A DNA stretch of 64,000 nt from Candidatus Nanoarchaeia archaeon (GCA_035288985.1 DATDYP010000011.1:7673-71672); one strand, 5' to 3'. Numbered from the stretch's first letter, positions 9,132 to 54,773 are shown. Notes: generated from the sequence alone by a model not told the origin. Translations and numbers: made by a program.

Positions 9132-10610
9132 ATGAAGTATAAGGTTAAGGATATGGATATTGCTACCGGCGGCGCATTGGTGGCAATCCTTAACCAAAGT
9201 GATTCCCAGAAGCTTGATCTGCACTCCGGCGACCGCATCCTGGTCAAGCATAACCACCGCTTCATCACCTGCGTCTTAGACATCTCTGAAAGCAAGAAAG
9301 CCGTCCCGCCGGGAAGGATTGGCTTGTTTGAAGAAGTTCTTGATAAGCTGCATGTCAAGGATGGCATGATCGTCAAGCTGGGCTTCACCGGCAAGCCGGA
9401 ATCTGTTAAGCACATCCGTGATAAATTATTGGGAAAAGAACTCAATGCTAAGGAATTATACCATATTACAGATGATATTACACACGATCGGCTGACCGAT
9501 ATTGAGAAAACCTATTTCGTGGCCGCGTCCTTTACGCAGGGATTAAGCCTGAAAGAAGTTATCGGTTTGACGAAGGCGATGGTCAAAACAGGTAAGACGC
9601 TAAAATTCCCTGGAATTACGATCGACAAGCACTGTATCGGAGGAGTTCCGGGAAACAGGACGACGATGATCGTTGTGCCGATCGTTGCTGCCGCAGGGTA
9701 CACGATTCCAAAAACTAGCTCGCGGGCAATTACTTCACCTGCAGGAACTGCCGATACGATGGAATGCCTGGCTAGAGTGGAGATGTCGGAAGCAAAGATT
9801 AAACATGTTGTGCATAAAACAGGAGCATGCATTGCCCACGGCGGCTCTATCAATCTCGCTCCTGCCGATGACAAAATCATCGAAGTTGAACATCCTCTTT
9901 CCATCGATGCAGAAGGCCAGTTATTGGCATCCGTCATGGCTAAGAAACATTCCGTAAGCGCCAATCATGTGCTGATAGACATCCCCATGGGAAAACATGT
10001 AAAAGCGCGGAATCTGAAAGAAGCAAATCACCTTAAAAAAATGTTTCAGCTGATCGGCAAAAAATTAAACATGAATGTCAAGGTAGTCATTACCGACGGC
10101 TCCCATCCTATCGGCAACGGTATCGGCCCATTATTGGAAGCGAAAGATGTGATGGCCGTGTTGCGCAATGATCCTGCAGCTCCGCAAGACTTACGGGAAA
10201 AGTCATTGATGCTGGCAGGACAATTGCTGGAACTAGTCTGTGAATGCGAGAAAGGCCAAGGGCTGCAGGTGGCGCAGGAAATTTTAGAAAGCGGTAAAGC
10301 GCTGCATAAGATGAATGAGATCATTAAAGCTCAGGGAAAGCAAAAAATGCCAGAATTGGGAAAGAATCACCACCAAGTGCATAGTCAAAGATCAGGAAAG
10401 ATTGTTGAAATCGATAATGATGTCATCGCCAAGCTGGCAAGAATCGCCGGGGCTCCGAAAGATAAGGGTTCAGGGCTCTACATCTCCAGAAAGATCGGCG
10501 AGCATGTCAGAAAAGGAGACCTTCTTTATACCATCTATGCAGAAAACGGGTTTAAGCTAAGGCTGGCCTTGGAATTGCTGCAGAAAAATACAGGATATAT
10601 CATTCATTAA
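9132..10610 (+). CDS. deoA: AMP phosphorylase (archaeal thymidine-phosphorylase-family enzyme with N-terminal extension)
   Basis: The N-terminal extension domain (MKYKVKDMDIATGGALVAILNQSDSQKLDLHSGDRI) is followed by a glycosyltransferase-family-3/pyrimidine-nucleoside-phosphorylase core (GGVPGNRTTMIVVPIVAAAGYTIPKTSSRAITSPAGTADTME). A TATA box sits at about 9058-9067. The ORF track starts at GTG 9108; I chose ATG 9132 by analogy with characterised AMPpase N-termini. Confidence 0.75.
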   Translation: MKYKVKDMDIATGGALVAILNQSDSQKLDLHSGDRILVKHNHRFITCVLDISESKKAVPPGRIGLFEEVLDKLHVKDGMIVKLGFTGKPESVKHIRDKLLGKELNAKELYHITDDITHDRLTDIEKTYFVAASFTQGLSLKEVIGLTKAMVKTGKTLKFPGITIDKHCIGGVPGNRTTMIVVPIVAAAGYTIPKTSSRAITSPAGTADTMECLARVEMSEAKIKHVVHKTGACIAHGGSINLAPADDKIIEVEHPLSIDAEGQLLASVMAKKHSVSANHVLIDIPMGKHVKARNLKEANHLKKMFQLIGKKLNMNVKVVITDGSHPIGNGIGPLLEAKDVMAVLRNDPAAPQDLREKSLMLAGQLLELVCECEKGQGLQVAQEILESGKALHKMNEIIKAQGKQKMPELGKNHHQVHSQRSGKIVEIDNDVIAKLARIAGAPKDKGSGLYISRKIGEHVRKGDLLYTIYAENGFKLRLALELLQKNTGYIIH

Positions 10611-14644: not shown

Positions 14645-15379
14645 TCACAACTTCCTGCAAAAGGTCAAGAAACCAGTATGTCCGAGCATCTGAAATTCAG
14701 GGCGCATGGTCTTCTCAGTAATATTCCACTTACGTTCAATCAGTTCGAGTGTTTCCTGTACGCTGATAGAGGTGCCTTTTGTTGAATCAATGAATTGTTT
14801 AACTTGATTTAAGTTAGGAAGATAGACTACCAGATAAGCCCCCTCTTTCAACGCTTTCTCTGCATGTCTTGTAACCTGCCATGGTTCCGGCAAGTCTAAG
14901 GTAACTAAATCCAGATCCTTCTCTTTGATGCCTTTATAGACATTATCCCGCTTTAAGATTATATTGGTCAGACCAAAGGCTTTAGCATTCTTCTGGATGA
15001 TCTCAACATTCTCCGGACTTATTTCGTACACTGTAACTTCCTTGCAGATGTTGGCTACGGACAGGCATAGTGATCCGGAACCGCCGCCGGCATCGAGAAC
15101 CTTAGAGTGCTTGTTTATTCCGGTCTTGGCGATAATCAGGCCTATATCTTTCTGCAGGATGATCTGCGGCCCACGTTTTAGATTTTCCCATAAATCAGGG
15201 AAGGTTGGATGTACCAGCAGGAAGGTTTGACCCTGGCTTGATTTCACTGTAGCACTCTTGCCTTTGAGATCCTTGCTTTTGATGATTCCGGAAGAAGTAT
15301 GAAAATCTTCGTCCAGATCTTTCACAAAAAACTTTTTTCCAGTCTTAGCTTCGATAAGAATTTTTTGGACAGTTCGCAT
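14645..15379 (-). CDS. trmI: tRNA (adenine-N1)-methyltransferase TrmI (Gcd14 family)
   Basis: SAM motif VLDAGGGSGSL plus Gcd14-like N-terminal and C-terminal regions; 244 aa. Confidence 0.75.
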   Translation of the reverse strand: MRTVQKILIEAKTGKKFFVKDLDEDFHTSSGIIKSKDLKGKSATVKSSQGQTFLLVHPTFPDLWENLKRGPQIILQKDIGLIIAKTGINKHSKVLDAGGGSGSLCLSVANICKEVTVYEISPENVEIIQKNAKAFGLTNIILKRDNVYKGIKEKDLDLVTLDLPEPWQVTRHAEKALKEGAYLVVYLPNLNQVKQFIDSTKGTSISVQETLELIERKWNITEKTMRPEFQMLGHTGFLTFCRKL

Positions 15380-15447: not shown

Positions 15448-15945
15448 TTACAACAACGGCAATTGAAGAAATGAAAACCGCTCAGGAATACGCTGCGGCC
15501 CTATAACTCCATTTCTGCGAATATAATCGGTAAGGCTTGGATCGTTTCTGTAATAAAACCAGGCCCACCAGTTTATCTGGTCCTCGCTGTGCCGGGTATG
15601 CAGATCCAAGTCCATAACAAGGTATTCAAACGCATGCAGCCATTCATGATTGATAGCGTGGTCTTCAAGTCTTTTCCCTTCCAGTCGTGTTGCAGGGTTA
15701 ATGCCGATAAGCTTTAAGTCGGGAAGCCATTCTGAGGGAGGATCGCATGACAGCATGGAATAATCATAAAACATCCTGACTCCTTCTCCCACGAGATAAT
15801 CGACCCAGTGGCGGTTGAAATCCCGCAGAGATAAGATCGCCATTGATGAGAAAAATGCATCAAAAAATATAAATGTACCGTCAAAAACCAGCAAAATATG
15901 ACCTTTATGAACAATAAAAAAACCTTCCTGGCTAAAGTAGACCAA
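15448..15945 (-). CDS. Hypothetical protein with HExxH motif (possible zincin-like metallopeptidase)
   Basis: Contains NHEWLHAFE (HExxH). The 5' end overlaps the divergent Taw3 gene by about 50 nt, so the true start may be the internal Met at 15843. Confidence 0.35.
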   Translation of the reverse strand: MVYFSQEGFFIVHKGHILLVFDGTFIFFDAFFSSMAILSLRDFNRHWVDYLVGEGVRMFYDYSMLSCDPPSEWLPDLKLIGINPATRLEGKRLEDHAINHEWLHAFEYLVMDLDLHTRHSEDQINWWAWFYYRNDPSLTDYIRRNGVIGPQRIPERFSFLQLPLL

Positions 15946-16587
15946 AGCAAGAAGGGAAGTATAGATGCACGGGTAACTCCACTACTTGACACCATTAACA
16001 AGAAAGCAGATTACTACACTACCTCTTCCTGTTCGGGCCGGGTCTATCTCTGGAAAGGAACAGAGAAGAAATCAGAAATGGAATGGCTGAGAGTAAGCCA
16101 TGATCTTATTGACGAGGATTTTGTCAAAATAGGACTGGGCGGACCATCGGTCAATAGACCGATGGCATGTTCGCTTTCGCTCACCGCCCAGCCTAATTTT
16201 GAACACGCAAGTATTCCACAAATAATTAGTGGTTTGCTTGCAAACCACCATTCACTAGAATGGTGGAATACTCCGCGTTTTAATATTGAAAAATCAGGAG
16301 TGGTATGGCTTCGCTTGGAGCCATTCATCCTTCACGTGGCCTGTAAAGACTTGGAGTGCGCCAGTGCTTTCCTTGAAAAAGCGCGAAGAGTCTACAAGAA
16401 AAGCTCCCTGCTCAGCACGGGCAGCAAAATCATGGTGGAAGTGCGAGGCTCTGAATTTATCGAGATGCCGTTGTACAAGGATGGCAAACTTCTTTTTTGT
16501 GGTGATAAAGAATGGTTGAGAAAGATGATCAATACTAAATTACAGAAAATATGGGCTGGAACGGCTACGTTTGCAAAGAATATCTAA
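15898..16587 (+). CDS. taw3: tRNA wybutosine-synthesizing protein 3 homolog (Taw3/TYW3 methyltransferase)
   Basis: TYW3-family features are DARVTPLLDTINKKADYYTTSSCSGRV and a conserved C-terminal half. An alternative start at 15907 is possible. Confidence 0.65.
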   Translation: MTFMNNKKTFLAKVDQSKKGSIDARVTPLLDTINKKADYYTTSSCSGRVYLWKGTEKKSEMEWLRVSHDLIDEDFVKIGLGGPSVNRPMACSLSLTAQPNFEHASIPQIISGLLANHHSLEWWNTPRFNIEKSGVVWLRLEPFILHVACKDLECASAFLEKARRVYKKSSLLSTGSKIMVEVRGSEFIEMPLYKDGKLLFCGDKEWLRKMINTKLQKIWAGTATFAKNI

Positions 16588-16639: not shown

Positions 16640-18661
16640 TTACCTTTTCTTCTTTACCAAAACAGCAAAAGTCAGCACTGCTGCAACGAAGGCAAGGATG
16701 ACCAGCACGCCCAGGAAGACTACATACTCATCACTTTCCCGGAAGGAAGCCTTAGCAGTCTTGGCAGTCTCTTTGGAGAGTACATAACTTTCCAGCTTCT
16801 GCTGCAGTTCTGCCTTCAGCGCATCATAATCCTGTTCGGTCTCGCTCTTACTGGTAACAGCAGAAGCGCAGCCTTTAACTTCCAGCTCAACATCTTCTGT
16901 CGCTTCCAACTCGCCGTCCCTGTACACTTCCACTGTCAGAAGGTGTTTGCCTTCTGCAGCTTCAGTAAGCAGGATCTGGAATGATTTAGAGTATTCAGTA
17001 TCATCTCCTGAATATTTGTCCAGTTCGATATCGGATTTTACAAGGTTGATTGCAAGATCATCGTTTCGTACCTTTATTTCAAGATCATCTTCATCGCTCT
17101 TGCCAACATTCTTAATCTCGACATCAAGGGTAAGCTGCTTAGTGGCTGAACATTGCAGCAAGGTTGAGGAAAGTTCTGCCTGAGTGATGATGACCTGATG
17201 TTTTTCCCGTTCAACATTCAGAGTGTACTTTTCTACTGTTATATGAACTGTGCCGTCATCAGCTTCGCCTTCAACAGTAACTTCAAGGACATATTCTTCC
17301 TCGTCAAGATCTTCTCCTTGTAAGTCAAACTCGAAAGTTTCTTCCTGCTCATCGCCGTCTTTCAGCTCAAATTCGTCGCTTTCCTCTTCTAAGTCATCAC
17401 CGTCAACATCAAGAAGCTCAACAGTGATAGTAACATCATCCATGTCTTCAGTGTATTCGTTCTTAACTTCAACAGTAACGTCGTTGACATCTTCAAGTGA
17501 AAGGTCGCCTGTTGTTTTGCCATTGACTTTTACTTTTGTAATGTCGAGAAAACTCTTCGGCAGCACATAGATTTGAGCTTCTTTCGTCACAGGCTGGTTA
17601 TCTTCATTTGTTCCCATTACTTTGAAAGTGCCAATGCTGTGTTTATTGGTATCTTCATCATCAGGTACTTTGATCTGAAGAGTTACCGAAGCCGGTTCAC
17701 CGGGAGAAAGCACTAGCTCATCTCCAGACAATCCTTCGGTAATCAGCGCCGCGTACTTGCTATTAACGTCGACAAGTTGGACGCTTACATTGCTTAACGT
17801 TTCTACCGTGCCGTTATTCTTGAACGTAAAAGTAGTTAGTACAGTCTTGCCTCGCAGGACATCGTTGAAAAGGATTTCTGAGATTTCGAAATCAGCAGCT
17901 TCGACAACTTGGTATGTTGAAAATCCTGCAACAGTGAAGACAAATTTTCCGTTTCCGTTACTGACAACCGTACATCCTACAGTACACTTTTCAAAATCCT
18001 CGTCATTTCCAGATTTCAGAATGACAGGCTTTTGGTATGTTTTCTTGACTGTAACTTTTCCACCCAGTTCTAGATGGCTGTCTGTCGGCAAGTCACCAGA
18101 ATCTACGGAAACTTTTCCATCTTCTATTGAAACATAATCAACAAGTTTCAGAATCTCTGAAAGATCAACTTTGCCATTCATTCCCGTGAATTCTATTGTG
18201 CCAAAGCTGTTTTCAAGCACGAAGTTTTCAACCTGTGTTGGGTCAGCAACAGTATCAAGGGCGGTAGTTCCAGCACCTGGGAATTGGCTTATGTCAACAG
18301 GCCTGTCGGCAACGTGAACATTCCATGATTTGGTTAGTTCAGAATCATCATTTACTGTTACTTTTATTACATAATCGTCTGCTTCATTGGAAGGAGCGTC
18401 GAATATGTACGAATCGCTATCCATACCTACATCATCGCCATCCAGAGACCATTGGTAGCTAATCATAACATCATCAGGATTATTCATCGTTACACTAAAT
18501 GTCTGGGAATCGCCATCTTTCATTACAAAAGGGCTTTCAGGGGCAGTTTCATCAAAGGTTAGTGCCAGCGCACTGCCGACAGTTATCAATAACGCCAATA
18601 CAAAGGCGATTACAAGTCCAAGTTTTTTTGTTTCCATTTTGTCTACCTCAATAGTAAACAT
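16640..18661 (-). CDS. Acidic cell-surface (S-layer-like) protein with CARDB-like repeats and C-terminal TM anchor
   Basis: 673 aa with a signal peptide. Multiple Asp/Glu-rich beta-domain repeats are present (e.g. TVEVKNEYTEDMDDVTITVELLDVDGDD). The C-terminus has a hydrophobic helix followed by KKKR. Confidence 0.6.
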   Translation of the reverse strand: MFTIEVDKMETKKLGLVIAFVLALLITVGSALALTFDETAPESPFVMKDGDSQTFSVTMNNPDDVMISYQWSLDGDDVGMDSDSYIFDAPSNEADDYVIKVTVNDDSELTKSWNVHVADRPVDISQFPGAGTTALDTVADPTQVENFVLENSFGTIEFTGMNGKVDLSEILKLVDYVSIEDGKVSVDSGDLPTDSHLELGGKVTVKKTYQKPVILKSGNDEDFEKCTVGCTVVSNGNGKFVFTVAGFSTYQVVEAADFEISEILFNDVLRGKTVLTTFTFKNNGTVETLSNVSVQLVDVNSKYAALITEGLSGDELVLSPGEPASVTLQIKVPDDEDTNKHSIGTFKVMGTNEDNQPVTKEAQIYVLPKSFLDITKVKVNGKTTGDLSLEDVNDVTVEVKNEYTEDMDDVTITVELLDVDGDDLEEESDEFELKDGDEQEETFEFDLQGEDLDEEEYVLEVTVEGEADDGTVHITVEKYTLNVEREKHQVIITQAELSSTLLQCSATKQLTLDVEIKNVGKSDEDDLEIKVRNDDLAINLVKSDIELDKYSGDDTEYSKSFQILLTEAAEGKHLLTVEVYRDGELEATEDVELEVKGCASAVTSKSETEQDYDALKAELQQKLESYVLSKETAKTAKASFRESDEYVVFLGVLVILAFVAAVLTFAVLVKKKR

Positions 18662-18685
18662 CCTACCACCAAGTATTAATCTAAT

Positions 18686-20068
18686 TTATTTTCTCACTAA
18701 TGCAGCCAGAAGTACGGCTATCATCACGATAAGAGCAACCATGGTAACCATGATTGCAGCAAAAGCGAAATCATCGACAGTATAAGGATCTTCGACTGTT
18801 TTAACCACTGTCGAGGATGTGATCAGGTCTTTTCCGGTTGAAGGTGCAGTCGAAGGCTGTTCTTGCGGTGCTGCAGTCTCAGTAGTGTCTTGCTCCTCTT
18901 CTTGTACTACTTCTTCCACAACCTCTGGCTTGCAGTCTTTGACAATGATGTCAACAAGCTCCTTGTCAGAGAAGGTATTGTATTCATACAAAGCATTAAT
19001 TGAGAGTGGATACTTGCCGGTCTTCTGCCCTTCCTTCAGTTTTATGAGATATTGATAAGTATAAGTGTTGTCCTTTGCCGTTCCCCGTTGAATTTCAAAC
19101 TCAACATTATCATCTATGCCAAGTTCAGTATTAAAGATGGACAGAGCAGCATGTTTTTGCGTGTTGGTGCCGTAATTCTTGACTTCAATAGTAAGCATGG
19201 TAGTTCGCGAACAGCTTAGCTCGGCTGGTGAAAAGGCGACAGATTCGATCCTGAGATCATCTTCCTCCCTTTCTACCATAAGGGTAACATCCCATTGTGT
19301 TGAATATGCAGCTCCAGTACCGTCTTCACTTTCAACCGTGATTTCCAGCGTGTACTCTCCTTCATCTGCATCGCCTGGGATGGTAAAGAGAAGAGCGACA
19401 GAATCAAGCGTCTCCCCTGCTTTGAGTTCAAAATCTTCTTCTAAGTCAATATCATCGCCAAAATCGCTGTCATCCAGCTCGACAGTTATGGTACCGTCCA
19501 GGTCCCCTTCATCATAATCTTCATCCAGAAGGTTTCGCAGATCAAATTGCAATTCCACCTCATCGCCGGGAGCTAGTTCATCAAGCTCTTCCCCGTCTTC
19601 GTCAACTTTCTTCTCAGAAACTCCATTGACAAAAAAGGTAATTTTTCGCACTTCCAGCATTTGCTGGACATCCGTCTTGAGATCATAACTGGTTGTTCCA
19701 CTGGTTGTTTCTACTTTTAAGGTGCCGATGGTGTGAACTCCTGCATCAACGTCAGCAGGAACGGTTCCGGTGATGGTAACATCAGAACTTCCTTGTGCAG
19801 ACAATTCCAGTGTCAAGGGTGAAACAGAAAGACTATATCCAGAAGCTAGTCCTTGCAGCGAGATGCTGACGTTTTCTGTAGAGTCGCCAGTATTTTTTAT
19901 CGTTACTGTATGAGAGACATTTACTTTGTCATCATCATCCTGAAGATTGTTATAGCTGATATCAATAGTAAGATCTTCAGCTTCAGCCTCTACAGCTGCA
20001 GAAACAAAGCTGGATAAAAGTAGTACTACGGCAAGTACAAGTGCTATCTGTAATGTAGGTTTTGCCAT
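18686..20068 (-). CDS. Acidic cell-surface protein, paralogue of the upstream gene, with C-terminal TM anchor
   Basis: 460 aa with a signal peptide. It shares the domain style of 16640..18661 (DDLRIESVAFSPAEL..., acidic repeats, a Pro/Glu/Thr-rich stalk). The C-terminal TM helix is followed by LVRK. Confidence 0.6.
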   Translation of the reverse strand: MAKPTLQIALVLAVVLLLSSFVSAAVEAEAEDLTIDISYNNLQDDDDKVNVSHTVTIKNTGDSTENVSISLQGLASGYSLSVSPLTLELSAQGSSDVTITGTVPADVDAGVHTIGTLKVETTSGTTSYDLKTDVQQMLEVRKITFFVNGVSEKKVDEDGEELDELAPGDEVELQFDLRNLLDEDYDEGDLDGTITVELDDSDFGDDIDLEEDFELKAGETLDSVALLFTIPGDADEGEYTLEITVESEDGTGAAYSTQWDVTLMVEREEDDLRIESVAFSPAELSCSRTTMLTIEVKNYGTNTQKHAALSIFNTELGIDDNVEFEIQRGTAKDNTYTYQYLIKLKEGQKTGKYPLSINALYEYNTFSDKELVDIIVKDCKPEVVEEVVQEEEQDTTETAAPQEQPSTAPSTGKDLITSSTVVKTVEDPYTVDDFAFAAIMVTMVALIVMIAVLLAALVRK

Positions 20069-23617: not shown

Positions 23618-24664
23618 ATGAATATTTCACCGGAATTAAAACAGCAATTAGCTGAACAAAAGAAACAATGCGTTTTCTGTAAATTAATCTCCGGCGAAAT
23701 GCCGGATGCAAAAAAAGTTTTCGAAGATGACAAGACTATTGCTCTTCTCGATATTTACCCCGCCGTGAAAGGACATACCTTATTCATGACCAAGGAACAT
23801 TATCCCATGCCCGCATACATGCCTAGTGAGGAATTTAAACAGATGTTCTCACTGATCCCTAGCTTGGGAAAGGCAGTGAAAAATGCCATGGTCAGAACTG
23901 GACTGAATGTGTTCATCGCACTCGGCGGCGCTGCCGGACAACAGAGTCCACATTTTATGGTTCATCTCCTGCCTCGGGAAGATGAGGACGGCTTTTTCAA
24001 TTTCCTGTTTGGCAAGAAAGGAGAAGTCTTGCGTGAGGAAGAGCAGAAGATGCTGGCACAACATTTGTCCCAGATCATGCAGAACCATTTTGCCCGCAAC
24101 CCAGCACCCTGGCATTCAGGAGCTGGAAGTATTCCTCCCTTTCTGGAAAAAATCAAGGCAGCTTCTAAGACCCTTTATGAAGATGAGAAAGTCCTGTGCG
24201 TCTTTCCCGAAAAGAGCGCTGGAAAAGGACATCTTGTGATCTACAGCAAAATGGAAGAGAAGGAGATTGAGAAACTGTCACAGGAAGATGCCGCTCATCT
24301 CTTTTCCATGGCTTCCCTAGCCAGCACTGCTGTCTTTGAAGGACTGAAAGCGCAGGGAACCAATATCCTCCTTAAATCAGGAAGGTGTGACGATAATCTT
24401 AGTGGAATGTTAGAGATACACATACTTCCACGATGGCAGGATGATAAATTGCAGGGATTGATGTGGCAGCCTAAACAGGCCAGTTATGATCTGGATGGCA
24501 TTGCCGCAAAAATTAAGGACAAGACCTGGAATGTCAAGTACAAGAAAGAAGAAAAGAAAGAAAAAAGTGCTGAAGGAAAAAAAGAAGTAAAAGAAAGTAA
24601 GCCAAAACCATTAACAACTCCTGATGAAGAGATCATCAAGGCTATTGAGAGGTTACGGCAATAG
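23618..24664 (+). CDS. Tandem HIT-like domain protein with degenerate histidine triad and Lys-rich C-terminal tail
   Basis: There are two HIT-fold halves (FCKLISGEMPDAKKVFEDDKTIALLDIYPAVKGHTLFMTKEH ... HFMVHLLP, and a second half ending LEIHILPRW). The canonical HxHxHxx motif is incomplete in both. Confidence 0.5.
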   Translation: MNISPELKQQLAEQKKQCVFCKLISGEMPDAKKVFEDDKTIALLDIYPAVKGHTLFMTKEHYPMPAYMPSEEFKQMFSLIPSLGKAVKNAMVRTGLNVFIALGGAAGQQSPHFMVHLLPREDEDGFFNFLFGKKGEVLREEEQKMLAQHLSQIMQNHFARNPAPWHSGAGSIPPFLEKIKAASKTLYEDEKVLCVFPEKSAGKGHLVIYSKMEEKEIEKLSQEDAAHLFSMASLASTAVFEGLKAQGTNILLKSGRCDDNLSGMLEIHILPRWQDDKLQGLMWQPKQASYDLDGIAAKIKDKTWNVKYKKEEKKEKSAEGKKEVKESKPKPLTTPDEEIIKAIERLRQ

Positions 24665-24847: not shown

Positions 24848-26362
24848 TCATGCTTTCCAAGGTGTTTTTCTTGGCATAACTAAACACAAAATTGTAGTTA
24901 TACCAATGATGAATAATGACGCTCCAACAATCCAGACAGGTTTATCAATAATGTTTCCATAAATAAAAAGAGGAAGTCCTACCACGAAGGCAATCAGAAC
25001 ACCCCAAAATACTCCTCGAGCGTCTAATCTATTCCAATACAGGCTTAAAACTGTAGGAACAACAACACAAGCAGCAACGGTGTTAAATATCCACCAAAGA
25101 TGTTTTAATCCAAAACCGGGAATATTCGCTGCTGCAAGAGCGACCAAAAATCCGAGAATAGTAATTCCAAGCATAGCTAATCGTGAGTGATGAACTCCTC
25201 TTTTATCAAGCTGAGCGTGAATTGCTTCTTCATCTTTTGTAAGAGCAATCTCTTTTTCAGCTTTCCCTAAAATTTTGCGCTCTTTATCACTATACTTTAT
25301 GACATCTATAACATAAAGTGAACTTGCAGCCATGACTCCAGAATCAAGAGTTGACATCAGGGCGCTTAGGAGCATAATAACAAATAGTATGACGGCTGCG
25401 GCAGGCAAAAACTGACTTACCGTTACAACACCAATAAGGGAAACATCTATTCCCGCAGGTAAAGAAACGCCTAGGCTTTGATTCGCTGCGAGAAAACCTA
25501 AAAGAGAAAGTGCAAGGGGAACGATACCAAACATAATTGCACCAAATACAAATGATTTAACAAGATTTTTCTTTTTAATTGCGAACGCTCTTTGCCAGTA
25601 TTGTTGATCTGAGATAGCTCCAGAAATAAGTCCAATCGCAGTTACTATCCCAAAGGAAAATGCTACGGAAGGGTCAAAAATATTTCTAAATTGTCCACTT
25701 ACTCCACCTAAGCCAGCATTTACTGCAGAAAAGCCTCCAACAGCAGAAAGAGTCCATGGAACAACGATAACCACGCCGAGTACAATTAAAATAAACTGGA
25801 TAAAATCGGTAACTATGGAAGCTTCCAGACCAGAAATAAAAGAATAGGCGAGAACAATAACCGCCATAATCACCATCGCATTAATGAGTGGAATGCCTGT
25901 AAGAAATGAAATGAGATTGCCGCCAGCAAAGAGCTGAACGGTAACAGCCATGAGTTGGTAGAAAAAATAAGGAAACAAATACATTTTGTGAACTTTACTG
26001 CTCTCCAACCGATATTTTATCCATTGCGGAAGCGTGTAACCATAAGGAAGTTTTTCTCGGATTTTTGGAGCAAGGAACATAAATAGCAATAAAGCGATTA
26101 TATTCGGAAACGTAAACCAAAAAATTCCAGGTAAGCCCTGCTGATATGCAAACTGTGTTGATACAAATAAGGCAGGTGCCCAAATCCATGATGCAGCAAT
26201 GCTCGTTGCACCAAGCCACCAGTTTACATTTCGTTCAGCAACTAAGAATCCCCGAATTGATTTGTATCTAGTCCAGCGAGCAAAGAAATAAGTAATAAGA
26301 ATCATAAATACGCCATAGGCAAGTAAAGTAAGATAACCTGTGGATTGTGATAAGTATGCCAT
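24848..26362 (-). CDS. Sodium:solute symporter family (SSS) transporter
   Basis: 504 aa with about 13 TM helices. An SSS N-terminal consensus is present (GFLVAERNVNWWLGATSIAASWIWAPALF). Confidence 0.7.
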   Translation of the reverse strand: MAYLSQSTGYLTLLAYGVFMILITYFFARWTRYKSIRGFLVAERNVNWWLGATSIAASWIWAPALFVSTQFAYQQGLPGIFWFTFPNIIALLLFMFLAPKIREKLPYGYTLPQWIKYRLESSKVHKMYLFPYFFYQLMAVTVQLFAGGNLISFLTGIPLINAMVIMAVIVLAYSFISGLEASIVTDFIQFILIVLGVVIVVPWTLSAVGGFSAVNAGLGGVSGQFRNIFDPSVAFSFGIVTAIGLISGAISDQQYWQRAFAIKKKNLVKSFVFGAIMFGIVPLALSLLGFLAANQSLGVSLPAGIDVSLIGVVTVSQFLPAAAVILFVIMLLSALMSTLDSGVMAASSLYVIDVIKYSDKERKILGKAEKEIALTKDEEAIHAQLDKRGVHHSRLAMLGITILGFLVALAAANIPGFGLKHLWWIFNTVAACVVVPTVLSLYWNRLDARGVFWGVLIAFVVGLPLFIYGNIIDKPVWIVGASLFIIGITTILCLVMPRKTPWKA

Positions 26363-26625
26363 GCAGTTAGTTCCTCTTTTCTTTGATTAAATAGTTTTTC
26401 TTTTTAAAGTTATCCATAACGTTTGCCCCCTGAGAAACAGAATTATAGGAAAAAATTTGGACGGAATGAAATGAAGTCGTTAAATCAACGTTATAGGACA
26501 GTTGCAGAGCAATTTCCTGCGTTTTTTCTTTTATCGATTTAACGAAGTCAGTCCCGTCAAAAAGCATCGGTTTTCCAAAGGAAAGAACCTCGTGAGGCAA
26601 TGTAAAAATTGAAACTAACTTCCAT

Positions 26626-27957
26626 TCAATCTCCTTCATATTCAACCAGATGAAAGAGGTTATACTTTTCTAATTTTTTTGAGCCTTGCAGATCTGGCAG
26701 ATTTATTACCACTGCCAATCCGGCTACTGTAGCATTTAGCTTCTCAACCAGCTTACAGGCAGCTTCTAACGTTCCACCTGTAGCCAGCAGGTCATCGACA
26801 ATCAAGACCTTGTCCATTTCATGAAGAGAACTCTTATGGATTTCAATTTTATCGGTTCCATACTCCAGGTCATATTCGACTGCAACTGTTTCCGCAGGCA
26901 ACTTGCCTTTTTTGCGGATCAAGACAAAAGGAAGATGCAGTTCCTTAGCCAGAGCTGCACCAAAAATAAATCCTCTTGACTCGATGCCGGCAACTTTTGT
27001 TATTTTTTTATCTTGAAATTGTTCTTTAAAGCGTGCAATGCAATATGCAAAGGCTTCTGGATTTTCTAACAAGGTTGTAATGTCTTTGAACATCACGCCT
27101 TTTTTCGGCCAATGTGGAACCGTCCTGATAACTGTTTTCAAGTCGTATTCCTCTTCTTCATCCTCTTCCTCTTGCGCCAGATTTTTTCCAGCGGCTGTGA
27201 AGGAGATCTTGGTAACTTTTGGAATAGTCTGCATAAGAAGTTTGATTACTTTGCCCACATTTTTTGTAAACACAGCTAATACTTCTTCATGCGTCACTGG
27301 AGCAACATCATCAAACAAGCAGTCATAATCGGTGCTCATAGCTACAGCTGCATAAGGAATTTTGGCTTCGTTAGCTAGTGCACATTCCGGCGCGATGGAC
27401 ATATTGATGACATCAGCTCCCCAGGAGGCAAACATTTTACTTTCTGCTTTTGTCGAGAAACGCGGGCCTTCGATAGTCACGACAGTCCCCTTCCTGTGAT
27501 GCTCCAATCCTAATTCCTGGCAGGATGTAATAAAGGCATTCCGTAATTCTTCAGAAAATGGCGTGGCCATCGGCGTATGCCCATGCTCTCCCGGAGAAAA
27601 GGAATCGTAAAAGGTCAGATCCCTGCGTCGGGTAAAGTCAATGAATTGGTCAAGAATGACCAAGTGACCCCTTCCAATCTCTTTCCGCAGACTTCCGCAG
27701 GCAGTTGTAGCTAAGATATGCGTACAACCGATATCCTTCAAGGCCTGGATATTGGCTTTATAATTAACTTGTGTCGGCGGTATAGTATGCTCCCGCCCAT
27801 GCCTGGCGATAAAAACAACTTCAGTGCCAGCTACCTTGCCTACCCGCAGCGGGGAGGATGGCTTTCCATATCTTGTGACCGCATCCAAGTCATGTTGATC
27901 TTGTACTTGTTCTATTTTGTACAACCCCGATCCGCCGATAATACCTATTTTCACCAT
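26626..27957 (-). CDS. Fusion protein: 5'-methylthioadenosine/purine-nucleoside phosphorylase (N-terminal) + adenine phosphoribosyltransferase (C-terminal)
   Basis: The N-terminal roughly 265 aa are MTAP-like (VKIGIIGGSGL, ARHGREHTIPPTQVNYKANIQALKDIGCTHILATTACGSL, VILDQFIDFT). An acidic linker (EEEDEEEEYD) follows. The C-terminal roughly 170 aa are APRT-like (FKDITTLLENPEAFAY, VAGIESRGFIFG, YDLEYGTDKIEIH, VLIVDDLLATGGT). Confidence 0.8.
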   Translation of the reverse strand: MVKIGIIGGSGLYKIEQVQDQHDLDAVTRYGKPSSPLRVGKVAGTEVVFIARHGREHTIPPTQVNYKANIQALKDIGCTHILATTACGSLRKEIGRGHLVILDQFIDFTRRRDLTFYDSFSPGEHGHTPMATPFSEELRNAFITSCQELGLEHHRKGTVVTIEGPRFSTKAESKMFASWGADVINMSIAPECALANEAKIPYAAVAMSTDYDCLFDDVAPVTHEEVLAVFTKNVGKVIKLLMQTIPKVTKISFTAAGKNLAQEEEDEEEEYDLKTVIRTVPHWPKKGVMFKDITTLLENPEAFAYCIARFKEQFQDKKITKVAGIESRGFIFGAALAKELHLPFVLIRKKGKLPAETVAVEYDLEYGTDKIEIHKSSLHEMDKVLIVDDLLATGGTLEAACKLVEKLNATVAGLAVVINLPDLQGSKKLEKYNLFHLVEYEGD

Positions 27958-27968
27958 GTATCATTACC

Positions 27969-28532
27969 TCATGCTGTTTTTACGTTTGTCTCTTTAAACA
28001 GTTCACACCACTGATTGAACTTTTCAACCTTGTCCTTTCCGAATTTAGCTAGCTCATCCCTGATCTTTTTTAAAGATTTTTCTTCTGTAAGATACATTGG
28101 ATCTTTTGAATAAAAGCAATCTGCGAAACAGATTATCTCTTCTTCAAGTGAGATCGGATTCATATCCCTTTTAGGGATGGGCAGCTTGTTTTTTTCGATC
28201 TCTGGTTTGGAAATACCCACCCCTGTATGCCTCTCGCAGACTAAAGCATGTTTGGATAGCCCTTCCTTTTCCAACACTTCCCGCCCTAGATAACCATGAC
28301 AAATATAAGGCTTGTCGCCATGGCAGCCTATATCCTGGGCATCTGTTTTGAAAATGCCGATATCATGCAGCATGGCCGCTTCCTGGATAAATTGCAGATC
28401 CGGTTTACGTTCAGGAATGCGTTTAGCAATTTCCAAGGCTTTCTTTGTGACCATAGCCGCATGGATAACAAAGATCTTATGTTCCTTAGAACCGGGCTGG
28501 TAATATTTTTCAATGATCTGGAGAGGCTGCAT
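27969..28532 (-). CDS. HD-domain phosphohydrolase
   Basis: Has the H...HD motif (AAMLHDIGIF) and a downstream His/Asp metal ligand (CHGYLG...ERHTG); 187 aa. Confidence 0.65.
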   Translation of the reverse strand: MQPLQIIEKYYQPGSKEHKIFVIHAAMVTKKALEIAKRIPERKPDLQFIQEAAMLHDIGIFKTDAQDIGCHGDKPYICHGYLGREVLEKEGLSKHALVCERHTGVGISKPEIEKNKLPIPKRDMNPISLEEEIICFADCFYSKDPMYLTEEKSLKKIRDELAKFGKDKVEKFNQWCELFKETNVKTA

Positions 28533-53939: not shown

Positions 53940-54773
53940 ATGAATAAACTATCTGTATTTGAAGGAAAGAATGTACGAAGAATTTGGCATAAAGACGAAT
54001 GGTATTTCTCAGTTGTGGATGTTATTGAAGCACTTACGGATAGCTCTAATCCTCGAAATTATTGGAACATGCTCAAAGCAAGAGAGGCAGAGCAAGGAGT
54101 TGAACTGTACACAGTTTGTGTACAATTGAAATTAACAGCAGAAGACGGCAAACTGAGAGAAACCGACTGCGCCAATACTGAAGCATTATTCCGTATTATT
54201 CAGTCCATCTCTTCTCCTAAAGCAGAACCCTTCAAGTTATGGTTGGCGAAAACTGGGTACGAGCGCATCCAGGAAATAGAAAACCCTGAATTAGGACAAA
54301 ACAGAATCAAACAATATTATGAACTGAAAGGCTATCCCAAAGATTGGATTGACAAACGCCTTAGAGGTATTGCTATTAGGCAAGAACTTACCGATGAGTG
54401 GAAAAAGCGCGAGGTAACCCAAGAAAAGGATTTTGCTATACTTACCAATGAGATTAGTAAAGCAGCTTTTGGCAAAACGATAGAGGAATATAGACAGTTC
54501 AAGGGTTTAGCAAAACCCAATCAGAATTTGCGAGATCACATGAATGATTGGGAATTAATTTTAAACGTGATTGGCGAGAAAGCGACCACAGATATTACGA
54601 TTGCCAAAGATGCGAAGGGATTTCCAGAATTGAAGCATACTGCTAAAGAAGGAGGCGATATTGCTAAGAATACCAGAACAGAACTCGAACAAAAAATAGG
54701 AAAATCAATAGTTTCAAAAGAAAATTATGTTCATCTGATAGAAGAGAAGAGAAAGAAGAAATCAATATCATAA
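53940..54773 (+). CDS. DinD/Bro-N-family protein (DNA-damage-inducible protein D-like; phage antirepressor-type domain)
   Basis: N-terminal Bro-N-like VRRIWHKDEWYFSVVDVIEALTDSSNPRNYW. The C-terminal KGLAKPNQNLRDHMNDWELILNVIGEKATTDIT resembles DinD KGLKKNQKILDHMGSTELAANLF. Confidence 0.6.
   Translation: MNKLSVFEGKNVRRIWHKDEWYFSVVDVIEALTDSSNPRNYWNMLKAREAEQGVELYTVCVQLKLTAEDGKLRETDCANTEALFRIIQSISSPKAEPFKLWLAKTGYERIQEIENPELGQNRIKQYYELKGYPKDWIDKRLRGIAIRQELTDEWKKREVTQEKDFAILTNEISKAAFGKTIEEYRQFKGLAKPNQNLRDHMNDWELILNVIGEKATTDITIAKDAKGFPELKHTAKEGGDIAKNTRTELEQKIGKSIVSKENYVHLIEEKRKKKSIS

Follow-up and report, generated by a model that had tools for sequence, protein, structure and literature searches.

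A window of 64,000 nucleotides from a Candidatus Nanoarchaeia archaeon (GCA_035288985.1, DATDYP010000011.1:7673-71672) contains, at 26626..27957 on the minus strand, a single uninterrupted ATG-to-stop open reading frame (ORF) of 443 aa, in which an S-methyl-5'-thioadenosine phosphorylase (MTAP) domain is followed by an adenine phosphoribosyltransferase (APRT) domain. Judging from its sequence, the gene probably (at about 0.8) specifies a bifunctional enzyme of adenine salvage in a tiny Woesearchaeota-type (DPANN) archaeon. A preliminary description of the window had proposed this one-ORF fusion, leaving the strand unstated, and both Pfam domains to be expected from it were found: PNP_UDP_1 at aa 3-245 (E=6e-50) and Pribosyltran at aa 294-433 (E=8.5e-21). 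The identical 443-aa protein recurs on 12 contigs that stem from three or more independent assemblies; JGI 3300002502 is among these, as are two ENA assemblies in which the neighbour genes are the same. The window is archaeal, encoding TFIIB, Cdc6/Orc1, STT3, SRP54 and a helicase of XPD type, and the label Candidatus Woesearchaeota is carried by proteins closely homologous to the fusion.

The N-terminal half passes the MTAP equivalog model TIGR01694 (EC 2.4.2.28) with 289.0 bits against a cut-off of 274.85, aa 3-246 being matched to model positions 1-239 of 240. Its best match among solved structures is human MTAP (1cb0, E=6e-77, query residues 2-259). In a HMMER alignment with 1cb0, residues S10, R52, H53, H57, T85, A86, F167, S168, M186, S187, D210 and D212 align to human T18, R60, H61, H65, T93, A94, F177, S178, M196, T197, D220 and D222, respectively; the roles of these contact residues are presumably those described for the human structure. 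The human phosphate site (T18, R60, H61, T93, A94, T197) is matched by S10, R52, H53, T85, A86 and S187, with Ser replacing both Thr18 and Thr197, each a conservative change. Conservation was assessed in a family alignment of 46 members with 53-73% identity to the query. Ten of the 12 contact residues are invariant or at least 90% conserved among these relatives, while H57 and S187 are kept in most, not all, of them. In the phosphate site, R52, H53 and A86 are invariant and S10 and T85 reach at least 90%; the adenine and ribose contacts F167, S168, M186, D210 and D212 are invariant in all 46.

The C-terminal half passes the apt equivalog TIGR01090 (EC 2.4.2.7) with 223.6 bits (cut-off 185.85), aa 273-440 covering model positions 1-169 of 169, as well as two further APRT equivalogs, NF002634 (229 versus 170) and NF002636 (225 versus 125). 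The best solved structures are bacterial APRTs 4mb6 and 5b6h (E=1e-50, query residues 273-442); E. coli 2dy0 and APRT 7xi2 were aligned as well. This half is closer to the bacterial-type models, the PRK12560 APRT model giving only 107 bits against a cut-off of 188. The motif VLIVDDLLATGGT (aa 383-395) is the phosphoribosyl pyrophosphate (PRPP)-binding loop of type I phosphoribosyltransferases (PRTs), with its acidic pair ahead of small residues; it is conserved in the family alignment and matches the loop of characterised APRTs; within this loop, V383-LIVDDLLATGGT-395, residues D388, D389, A392 and G395 are invariant in the 46 relatives. The L364-E365-Y366-G367 loop and the R328-G329-F330 motif are likewise invariant in the family and identical in the alignments with E. 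coli and Yersinia APRT; they are taken to be the flexible catalytic Glu-Tyr loop and the site of the arginine that contacts pyrophosphate. Since catalytic and substrate-binding residues are invariant or nearly so among relatives of such moderate identity, both halves are under purifying selection; both look catalytically competent.

The fused architecture is widespread. From 5.8 billion proteins, a word-indexed search recovered at least 120 clusters with 56-72% identity, all covering the query end to end and all carrying both Pfam domains. Each GTDB species was represented by one genome in a pattern scan, which was restricted to the best 80 loci, so that its counts are lower bounds; it yielded at least 16 single-ORF fusions after an ORF check. 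Nearly all of these 16 are labelled Woesearchaeota, Pacearchaeota, Nanoarchaeota or plain 'archaeon', the exceptions being one 'Methanosarcinales' and one 'Buchananbacteria' metagenome-assembled genome (MAG); the fusion is the common form in Woesearchaeota-type DPANN archaea. Woesearchaeota-like genes, fused or split, are also found under unexpected labels at loci L012 ('Methanosarcinales'), L028 ('Buchananbacteria'), L040 and L064 ('Patescibacteria' / 'Magasanikiibacteriota'), which suggests either mis-binning or lateral transfer between DPANN archaea and Patescibacteria. Bacterial tblastn matches running over residues 1-443 were considered as true fusions and rejected, the ORF check having resolved them into two adjacent genes.

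About 30 further loci among the best 80 hold mtnP and apt as adjacent co-directional ORFs. Such pairs are present in many anaerobic bacteria; the hosts are Desulfobacterales, Thermodesulfobacteriota, Nitrospirae, Marinimicrobia, Saganbacteria, Magnetococcales, some bins labelled Patescibacteria and several Woesearchaeota; in Desulfovibrionaceae the order is reversed, apt preceding mtnP. In pairs such as L024 (Saganbacteria), L015 (Desulfobacterales), L027 (Nitrospiraceae) and L045 (Woesearchaeota), the orthologous halves share 43-68% identity and the same order with the fusion but make two polypeptides instead of one, and such a split pair is likely to be either the precursor state of the fusion or a product of its fission. 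Many split pairs are in the same frame with a single stop codon between the genes (L008, L015, L017-L020, L022, L024, L025, L027, L029, L033, L035, L037, L038), in several cases with ATG immediately after it. Nearly all of the listed pairs are same-frame, far more than one third; biased ranking of tblastn hits running across a stop is the probable cause of this excess. Selenocysteine insertion or programmed readthrough at the mtnP-apt stop was rejected in view of the mixture of TAA, TAG and TGA codons with ATG directly after; because the stops are mixed, the spacing is ordinary tight gene packing with no recoding.

At the junctions of sister loci, fused L028 reads '...KLHPIKSRIRT' where split L024 reads '...GRI*MPIKSRIRT', and fused L005 reads '...GGQEIGAKK' where split L008 reads '...GGV*MADSK'; the members of each couple differ essentially by a stop and a start as against sense codons. 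The simplest reading of these sequences is that the fusion arises readily from an mtnP-apt operon through stop loss. It probably arose repeatedly: a tightly packed co-directional pair would lose the intervening stop and start, seemingly more than once. Fused and split forms interleave in crude neighbour-joining trees, whether of each half or of both together. Fission in the reverse direction is equally easy. The nearest stand-alone relatives of the MTAP half among the loci listed (66-70% identity) belong to Asgard archaea (Promethearchaeota / Hermodarchaeota MAGs; L042-L050, L054, L061). In several of these Asgard loci, an APRT gene of the same strand is located upstream at a distance of about 1.2-2.7 kb, and another MTAP paralogue, a divergent one (36% identity), is close by.

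Other proteins also unite an adenine-releasing enzyme with APRT. When 1.84 billion representatives at 50% identity were searched exhaustively with HMMER, the window family was reduced to roughly a single representative (P0121). Two further proteins found in this way are an MTAP-APRT that is more distant (P0133) and an MTAP-APRT with a PRK08931-type MTAP (P0123). The same logic is followed by proteins of the opposite order, APRT-MTAP (P0122, P0124), and by MTA/SAH nucleosidase-APRT fusions (P0186, P0255), in which a hydrolase (Pfs/MtnN) replaces the phosphorylase; tandem proteins with two PRT domains (P0139, P0180, P0228) were also noted. Each of these other architectures is a single cluster on short metagenomic contigs with an unassigned host and is less secure. 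They show that evolution has several times joined APRT to an enzyme that releases adenine, and independent fusions of this kind are a classic signature of functional coupling.

Among the 120 clusters, eight add an N-terminal PfkB kinase domain to give proteins of about 760 aa (P0011, P0016, P0019, P0027, P0037, P0040, P0069, P0078), which share 61-69% identity with the window protein over their MTAP-APRT part. Adenosine kinases are the nearest structural relatives of the PfkB domain (3ubo, E=1e-53, full length), so that the triple fusion would place three routes to adenosine monophosphate (AMP) on one chain. An alternative assignment of this domain as a ribose-1-phosphate kinase, with a link to pentose bisphosphates and RuBisCO, found no support, the corresponding models scoring 100-105 bits against cut-offs of 330-500. 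The 64-kb window itself contains no homologue of the PfkB domain.

The two domains of the window protein are joined by a linker of 26 residues, KVTKISFTAAGKNLAQEEEDEEEEYD, and the variable columns of the 46-member alignment are confined to this junction. Linkers of 120 relatives, measured against the domain boundaries of the query, are 5-52 residues long (median 19.5) and are not conserved in sequence; one sister-group fusion is practically without a linker. The preliminary description had the two enzymes fused through a poly-acidic linker. The acidic run EEEDEEEE is indeed present in the window protein, but as a design feature of the architecture it does not hold: given that a run of at least four Asp or Glu residues occurs in only 22 of the 120 linkers, the poly-acidic stretch is a trait of this protein and its nearest relatives. 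Two or more cysteines are present in 19 of the 120 linkers (e.g. 'SCNPSCCCHQNCEEEE'; P0021, P0022, P0024 and others), and in some relatives (L005, L008, L038) the MTAP domain ends with a CxC motif ('CKCRED', 'CQCRED', 'CECK'); these cysteines may form disulfides or bind metal. An AlphaFold2 model built from the family alignment has two confident domains, with a mean predicted local distance difference test (pLDDT) score of 87.8 and a predicted template modelling (pTM) score of 0.58; pLDDT falls below 50 at aa 254-269, predicting disorder. The low linker pLDDT and the pTM value together suggest a flexible tether, with no fixed interface between the domains predicted.

5'-Substituted adenosines are by-products of S-adenosylmethionine (SAM) chemistry, and in cells of this type 5'-methylthioadenosine (MTA) and 5'-deoxyadenosine are likely to come from aminocarboxypropyl transfers and radical-SAM enzymes. 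The scheme proposed for the fusion, including both activities, their substrate range, the kinetic benefit and any coupling or channelling, is a reading of the protein sequence. The MTAP domain would phosphorolyse MTA, probably 5'-deoxyadenosine and possibly adenosine to adenine and a (5-substituted) ribose-1-phosphate, and the APRT domain would combine the released adenine with PRPP to form AMP. The earlier proposal that the two halves are enzymes of consecutive steps agrees with the domain and residue evidence, which points to two intact active sites. Synthesis as a single chain would provide 1:1 expression and co-localisation. APRT would also take away adenine, a product of the MTAP reaction; as that reaction is reversible, the removal of adenine should favour turnover, as expected from general enzymology. 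With a disordered tether of no conserved sequence between the domains, coupling would depend on proximity and product removal rather than on a built tunnel.

Several points weigh against this scheme or against parts of it. The MTAP domain stops about 20-25 residues short of human MTAP, its alignment to 1cb0 ending at residue 259-269 of 283, and what is missing is the human C-terminal segment (the L279 region) that reaches the 5'-alkylthio pocket of the neighbouring subunit. The 240 positions of TIGR01694 exclude that segment, and the short C-terminus is a trait of the clade rather than an effect of fusion, because its stand-alone members stop there as well. MTAPs assemble as trimers or hexamers whereas APRTs form dimers, two symmetries that the fusion must reconcile. 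No conserved structured interface or tunnel of the tryptophan synthase type is present in the alignment or in the AlphaFold2 monomer model, which can miss an interface formed only in an oligomer, and true channelling is unsupported. The neighbour-joining trees are crude, carry no support values and leave the number of fusion and fission events uncertain, and some of the split forms may go back to later fission or to errors of sequencing. The preference for MTA or adenosine cannot be read from the sequence, either: an assignment from active-site residues was abandoned, as such residues do not set the preference in the adenosine-using Schistosoma MTAP, whose specificity was not switched by mutating those that set it apart from the human one (PMC5147791).

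This last point bears on a tentative and rather unlikely alternative, in which the fusion serves the salvage of adenosine after adenosylhomocysteinase, from S-adenosylhomocysteine through adenosine and adenine to AMP, and the N-terminal domain is a general 6-aminopurine nucleoside phosphorylase. The adenosylhomocysteinase gene ahcY lies only 1.8 kb from the fusion in the window and directly upstream of it in L006, but it is unlinked in 14 of the 16 other fused loci, L005, where it is nearby, being the second in which it occurs. Some MTAP-family enzymes do accept adenosine besides MTA (PMC5147791; NucPNP, PMC8694150), Ser10 of the phosphate loop is the Ser of the Schistosoma enzyme rather than human Thr18, and the domain is without the C-terminal stretch by which the 5'-pocket of human MTAP is shaped; the best profile hidden Markov model is nevertheless the MTAP equivalog. 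The adenosine-kinase-like domain added in eight relatives would make adenosine phosphorolysis redundant and fits 5'-blocked substrates better. It argues mildly for an MTAP half that serves 5'-blocked nucleosides, which a kinase cannot phosphorylate.

A bolder form of the bifunctional reading, speculative and improbable, takes the fusion and its three-domain form, in DPANN archaea whose nucleotide metabolism is minimal, as a defined higher-order particle, with MTAP trimers bridged by APRT dimers (e.g. in a D3 hexamer), that would channel adenine unreleased and act as the sole AMP-rebuilding hub for SAM-derived and scavenged adenine nucleosides. Such a particle would be an undescribed 'adenylate salvage' machine, and its repeated origin by stop loss a natural model of metabolons becoming fusion proteins.

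It is quite improbable that the enzyme harvests carbon, with adenine used catalytically by APRT and AMP phosphorylase in turning PRPP into ribose-1,5-bisphosphate for form III RuBisCO and not for the AMP pool. Some Woesearchaeota encode the full route of AMP phosphorylase, ribose-1,5-bisphosphate isomerase and RuBisCO (PMC8421398), whereas neither RuBisCO nor the isomerase is present among the window ORFs scanned. The window does contain a bona fide AMP phosphorylase, but its gene is about 16 kb away on the opposite strand and is near the fusion in none of the 16 other fused loci; in the three-domain proteins, moreover, the PfkB domain resembles adenosine kinase and not ribose-1-phosphate kinase.

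A non-catalytic half, e.g. a PRT fold that senses adenine or PRPP in the manner of PurR or PyrR and leaves the protein with one activity only, is very improbable. PRT folds have been recruited as regulators and the purR_Bsub model matches the C-terminal half weakly (59.8 bits, cut-off 258.7), but this half passes three APRT equivalog cut-offs with its PRPP loop, Glu-Tyr catalytic loop and Arg-Gly-Phe motif invariant, and the N-terminal half retains its phosphate, ribose and base contacts. An artificial joining of two adjacent genes by a frameshift, as considered in the preliminary description, or else by chimeric assembly or an overlooked stop codon, is made conceivable by close relatives with separate adjacent genes, at times one stop apart, where a single-base error could mimic a fusion, but is effectively refuted by the recovery of the same protein from 12 contigs of independent assemblies, by the fused frame kept with many linker lengths in at least 120 diverged clusters and by the lack of any counterpart of the 26-aa linker in the split genes.

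The bifunctional enzyme can be compared with several known systems. Stand-alone MtnP/MTAP proteins (human 1CB0, Sulfolobus 2A8Y, Aeropyrum 1WTA) have the same fold and family, and their phosphate, ribose and adenine contacts are present in the fusion; they differ from the window protein, in which MTAP ends at about residue 246 and is continued by linker and APRT, and in which Ser takes the place of human Thr18 and Thr197. The C-terminal half is, like stand-alone bacterial-type Apt (E. coli 2DY0, Yersinia 4MB6/5B6H), a full-length type I PRT with APRT-specific motifs, but with its N-terminus tethered to MTAP. In vitro, the MTAP-like NucPNP converts MTA or adenosine to adenine, and NucV, an APRT homologue, converts adenine and PRPP to AMP (PMC8694150); a working pair of such enzymes is established here for separate, unfused proteins, which belong to the nucleocidin cluster, a secondary-metabolite cluster of Streptomyces calvus.

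In the source databases these proteins go by the name 'S-methyl-5'-thioadenosine phosphorylase' alone, except for one called 'adenine phosphoribosyltransferase'. The fusion is undescribed in the full-text literature searched, a scope outside which most subscription journals fall, and a targeted reading of a Woesearchaeota comparative-genomics paper and of a 2026 Nanobdellota preprint met with no mention of it. The architecture is surely listed in InterPro. The preliminary description had not known it as a standard architecture, a view that holds for names and searched literature and fails for frequency, at least 120 clusters and at least 16 of the 80 loci being fused; the counter-possibility that it would prove common and already annotated is true in part, as it is common and present in databases but automatically named as MTAP only. 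The fusion is a real, recurrent and apparently undescribed bifunctional arrangement of two textbook enzymes, reached by a mundane evolutionary step. To a specialist it will be tidy rather than surprising, with no new chemistry or new kind of system. Should both activities be confirmed, a single compact protein would lead from SAM by-products to AMP in organisms that supposedly subsist on scavenging, and the finding would correct a systematic annotation gap, hundreds of entries named only 'MTAP' hiding the APRT of the cell. The natural series of split pair, zero-linker, long-linker and three-domain fusion lends itself to the study of how operon neighbours become multidomain enzymes and of whether flux gains from tethering alone.

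The coordinates of the fusion and of the genes around it are collected in Table 1. The HD-domain gene, the fusion, the 92-codon ORF and the symporter gene lie head to tail with tiny gaps on the minus strand (24848-28532) and may form an operon; an isochorismatase-family gene is also located upstream of the fusion on the same strand. The places and distances given earlier for ahcY and AMP phosphorylase are confirmed by the AdoHcyase Pfam domains and by TIGR03327, respectively. No conserved neighbourhood (ahcY, HD, isochorismatase, SSF or AMP phosphorylase) was found in the 16 other fused loci beyond the synteny of L005 and L006, and the argument from clustering adds little because the neighbours do not recur.

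Table 1. Features of the MTAP-APRT fusion and of selected genes in the window.
Feature	Position	Strand	Basis or remark
Fusion gene	26626..27957	minus	ORF list; 443 codons + stop codon at 26626-26628
MTAP domain, aa 1-246	27220..27957	minus	TIGR01694, PNP_UDP_1
Inter-domain linker, aa 247-272	27142..27219	minus	hypervariable alignment columns
Acidic run EEEDEEEE, aa 263-270	27148-27171	minus	sequence
APRT domain, aa 273-443	26629..27141	minus	TIGR01090, NF002634
HD/HDIG-domain phosphohydrolase	27969..28532	minus	PF01966, TIGR00277 HDIG; ends 11 nt upstream of fusion start
92-codon ORF	26367-26645	minus	no family match; overlaps fusion 3' end by 20 nt
Sodium:solute symporter (SSF)	24848-26362	minus	downstream of fusion
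ahcY (adenosylhomocysteinase), 469 aa	29762..31171	minus	AdoHcyase + AdoHcyase_NAD Pfam; 1.8 kb from fusion
AMP phosphorylase	9108/9132..10610	plus	TIGR03327 (551.4 versus cut-off 535); about 16 kb from fusion

Two genes downstream of the fusion, a plus-strand gene (23618-24664) encodes a 348-aa protein with a HIT-family domain, of the nucleotide hydrolase/transferase superfamily, and a Lys/Glu-rich tail; a homologue with 51% identity is found near the fusion in L005. The window encodes several SAM-dependent methyltransferases, the tRNA and rRNA methyltransferases among them being Trm61-like (14645-15379), TYW3 (15898-16587) and AviRa-like (8144-8881). ARAGORN detected no tRNA genes in the 64 kb, despite the presence of two aminoacyl-tRNA synthetases. 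Large ORFs of 398-673 aa without a Pfam or NCBIfam match are located at 3017-5601, 16640-20068 and 56695-58269, all on the minus strand. This archaeal contig also carries, at 53940-54773 on the plus strand, a gene for a protein with a Bro-N domain, which is typical of viruses and mobile elements.

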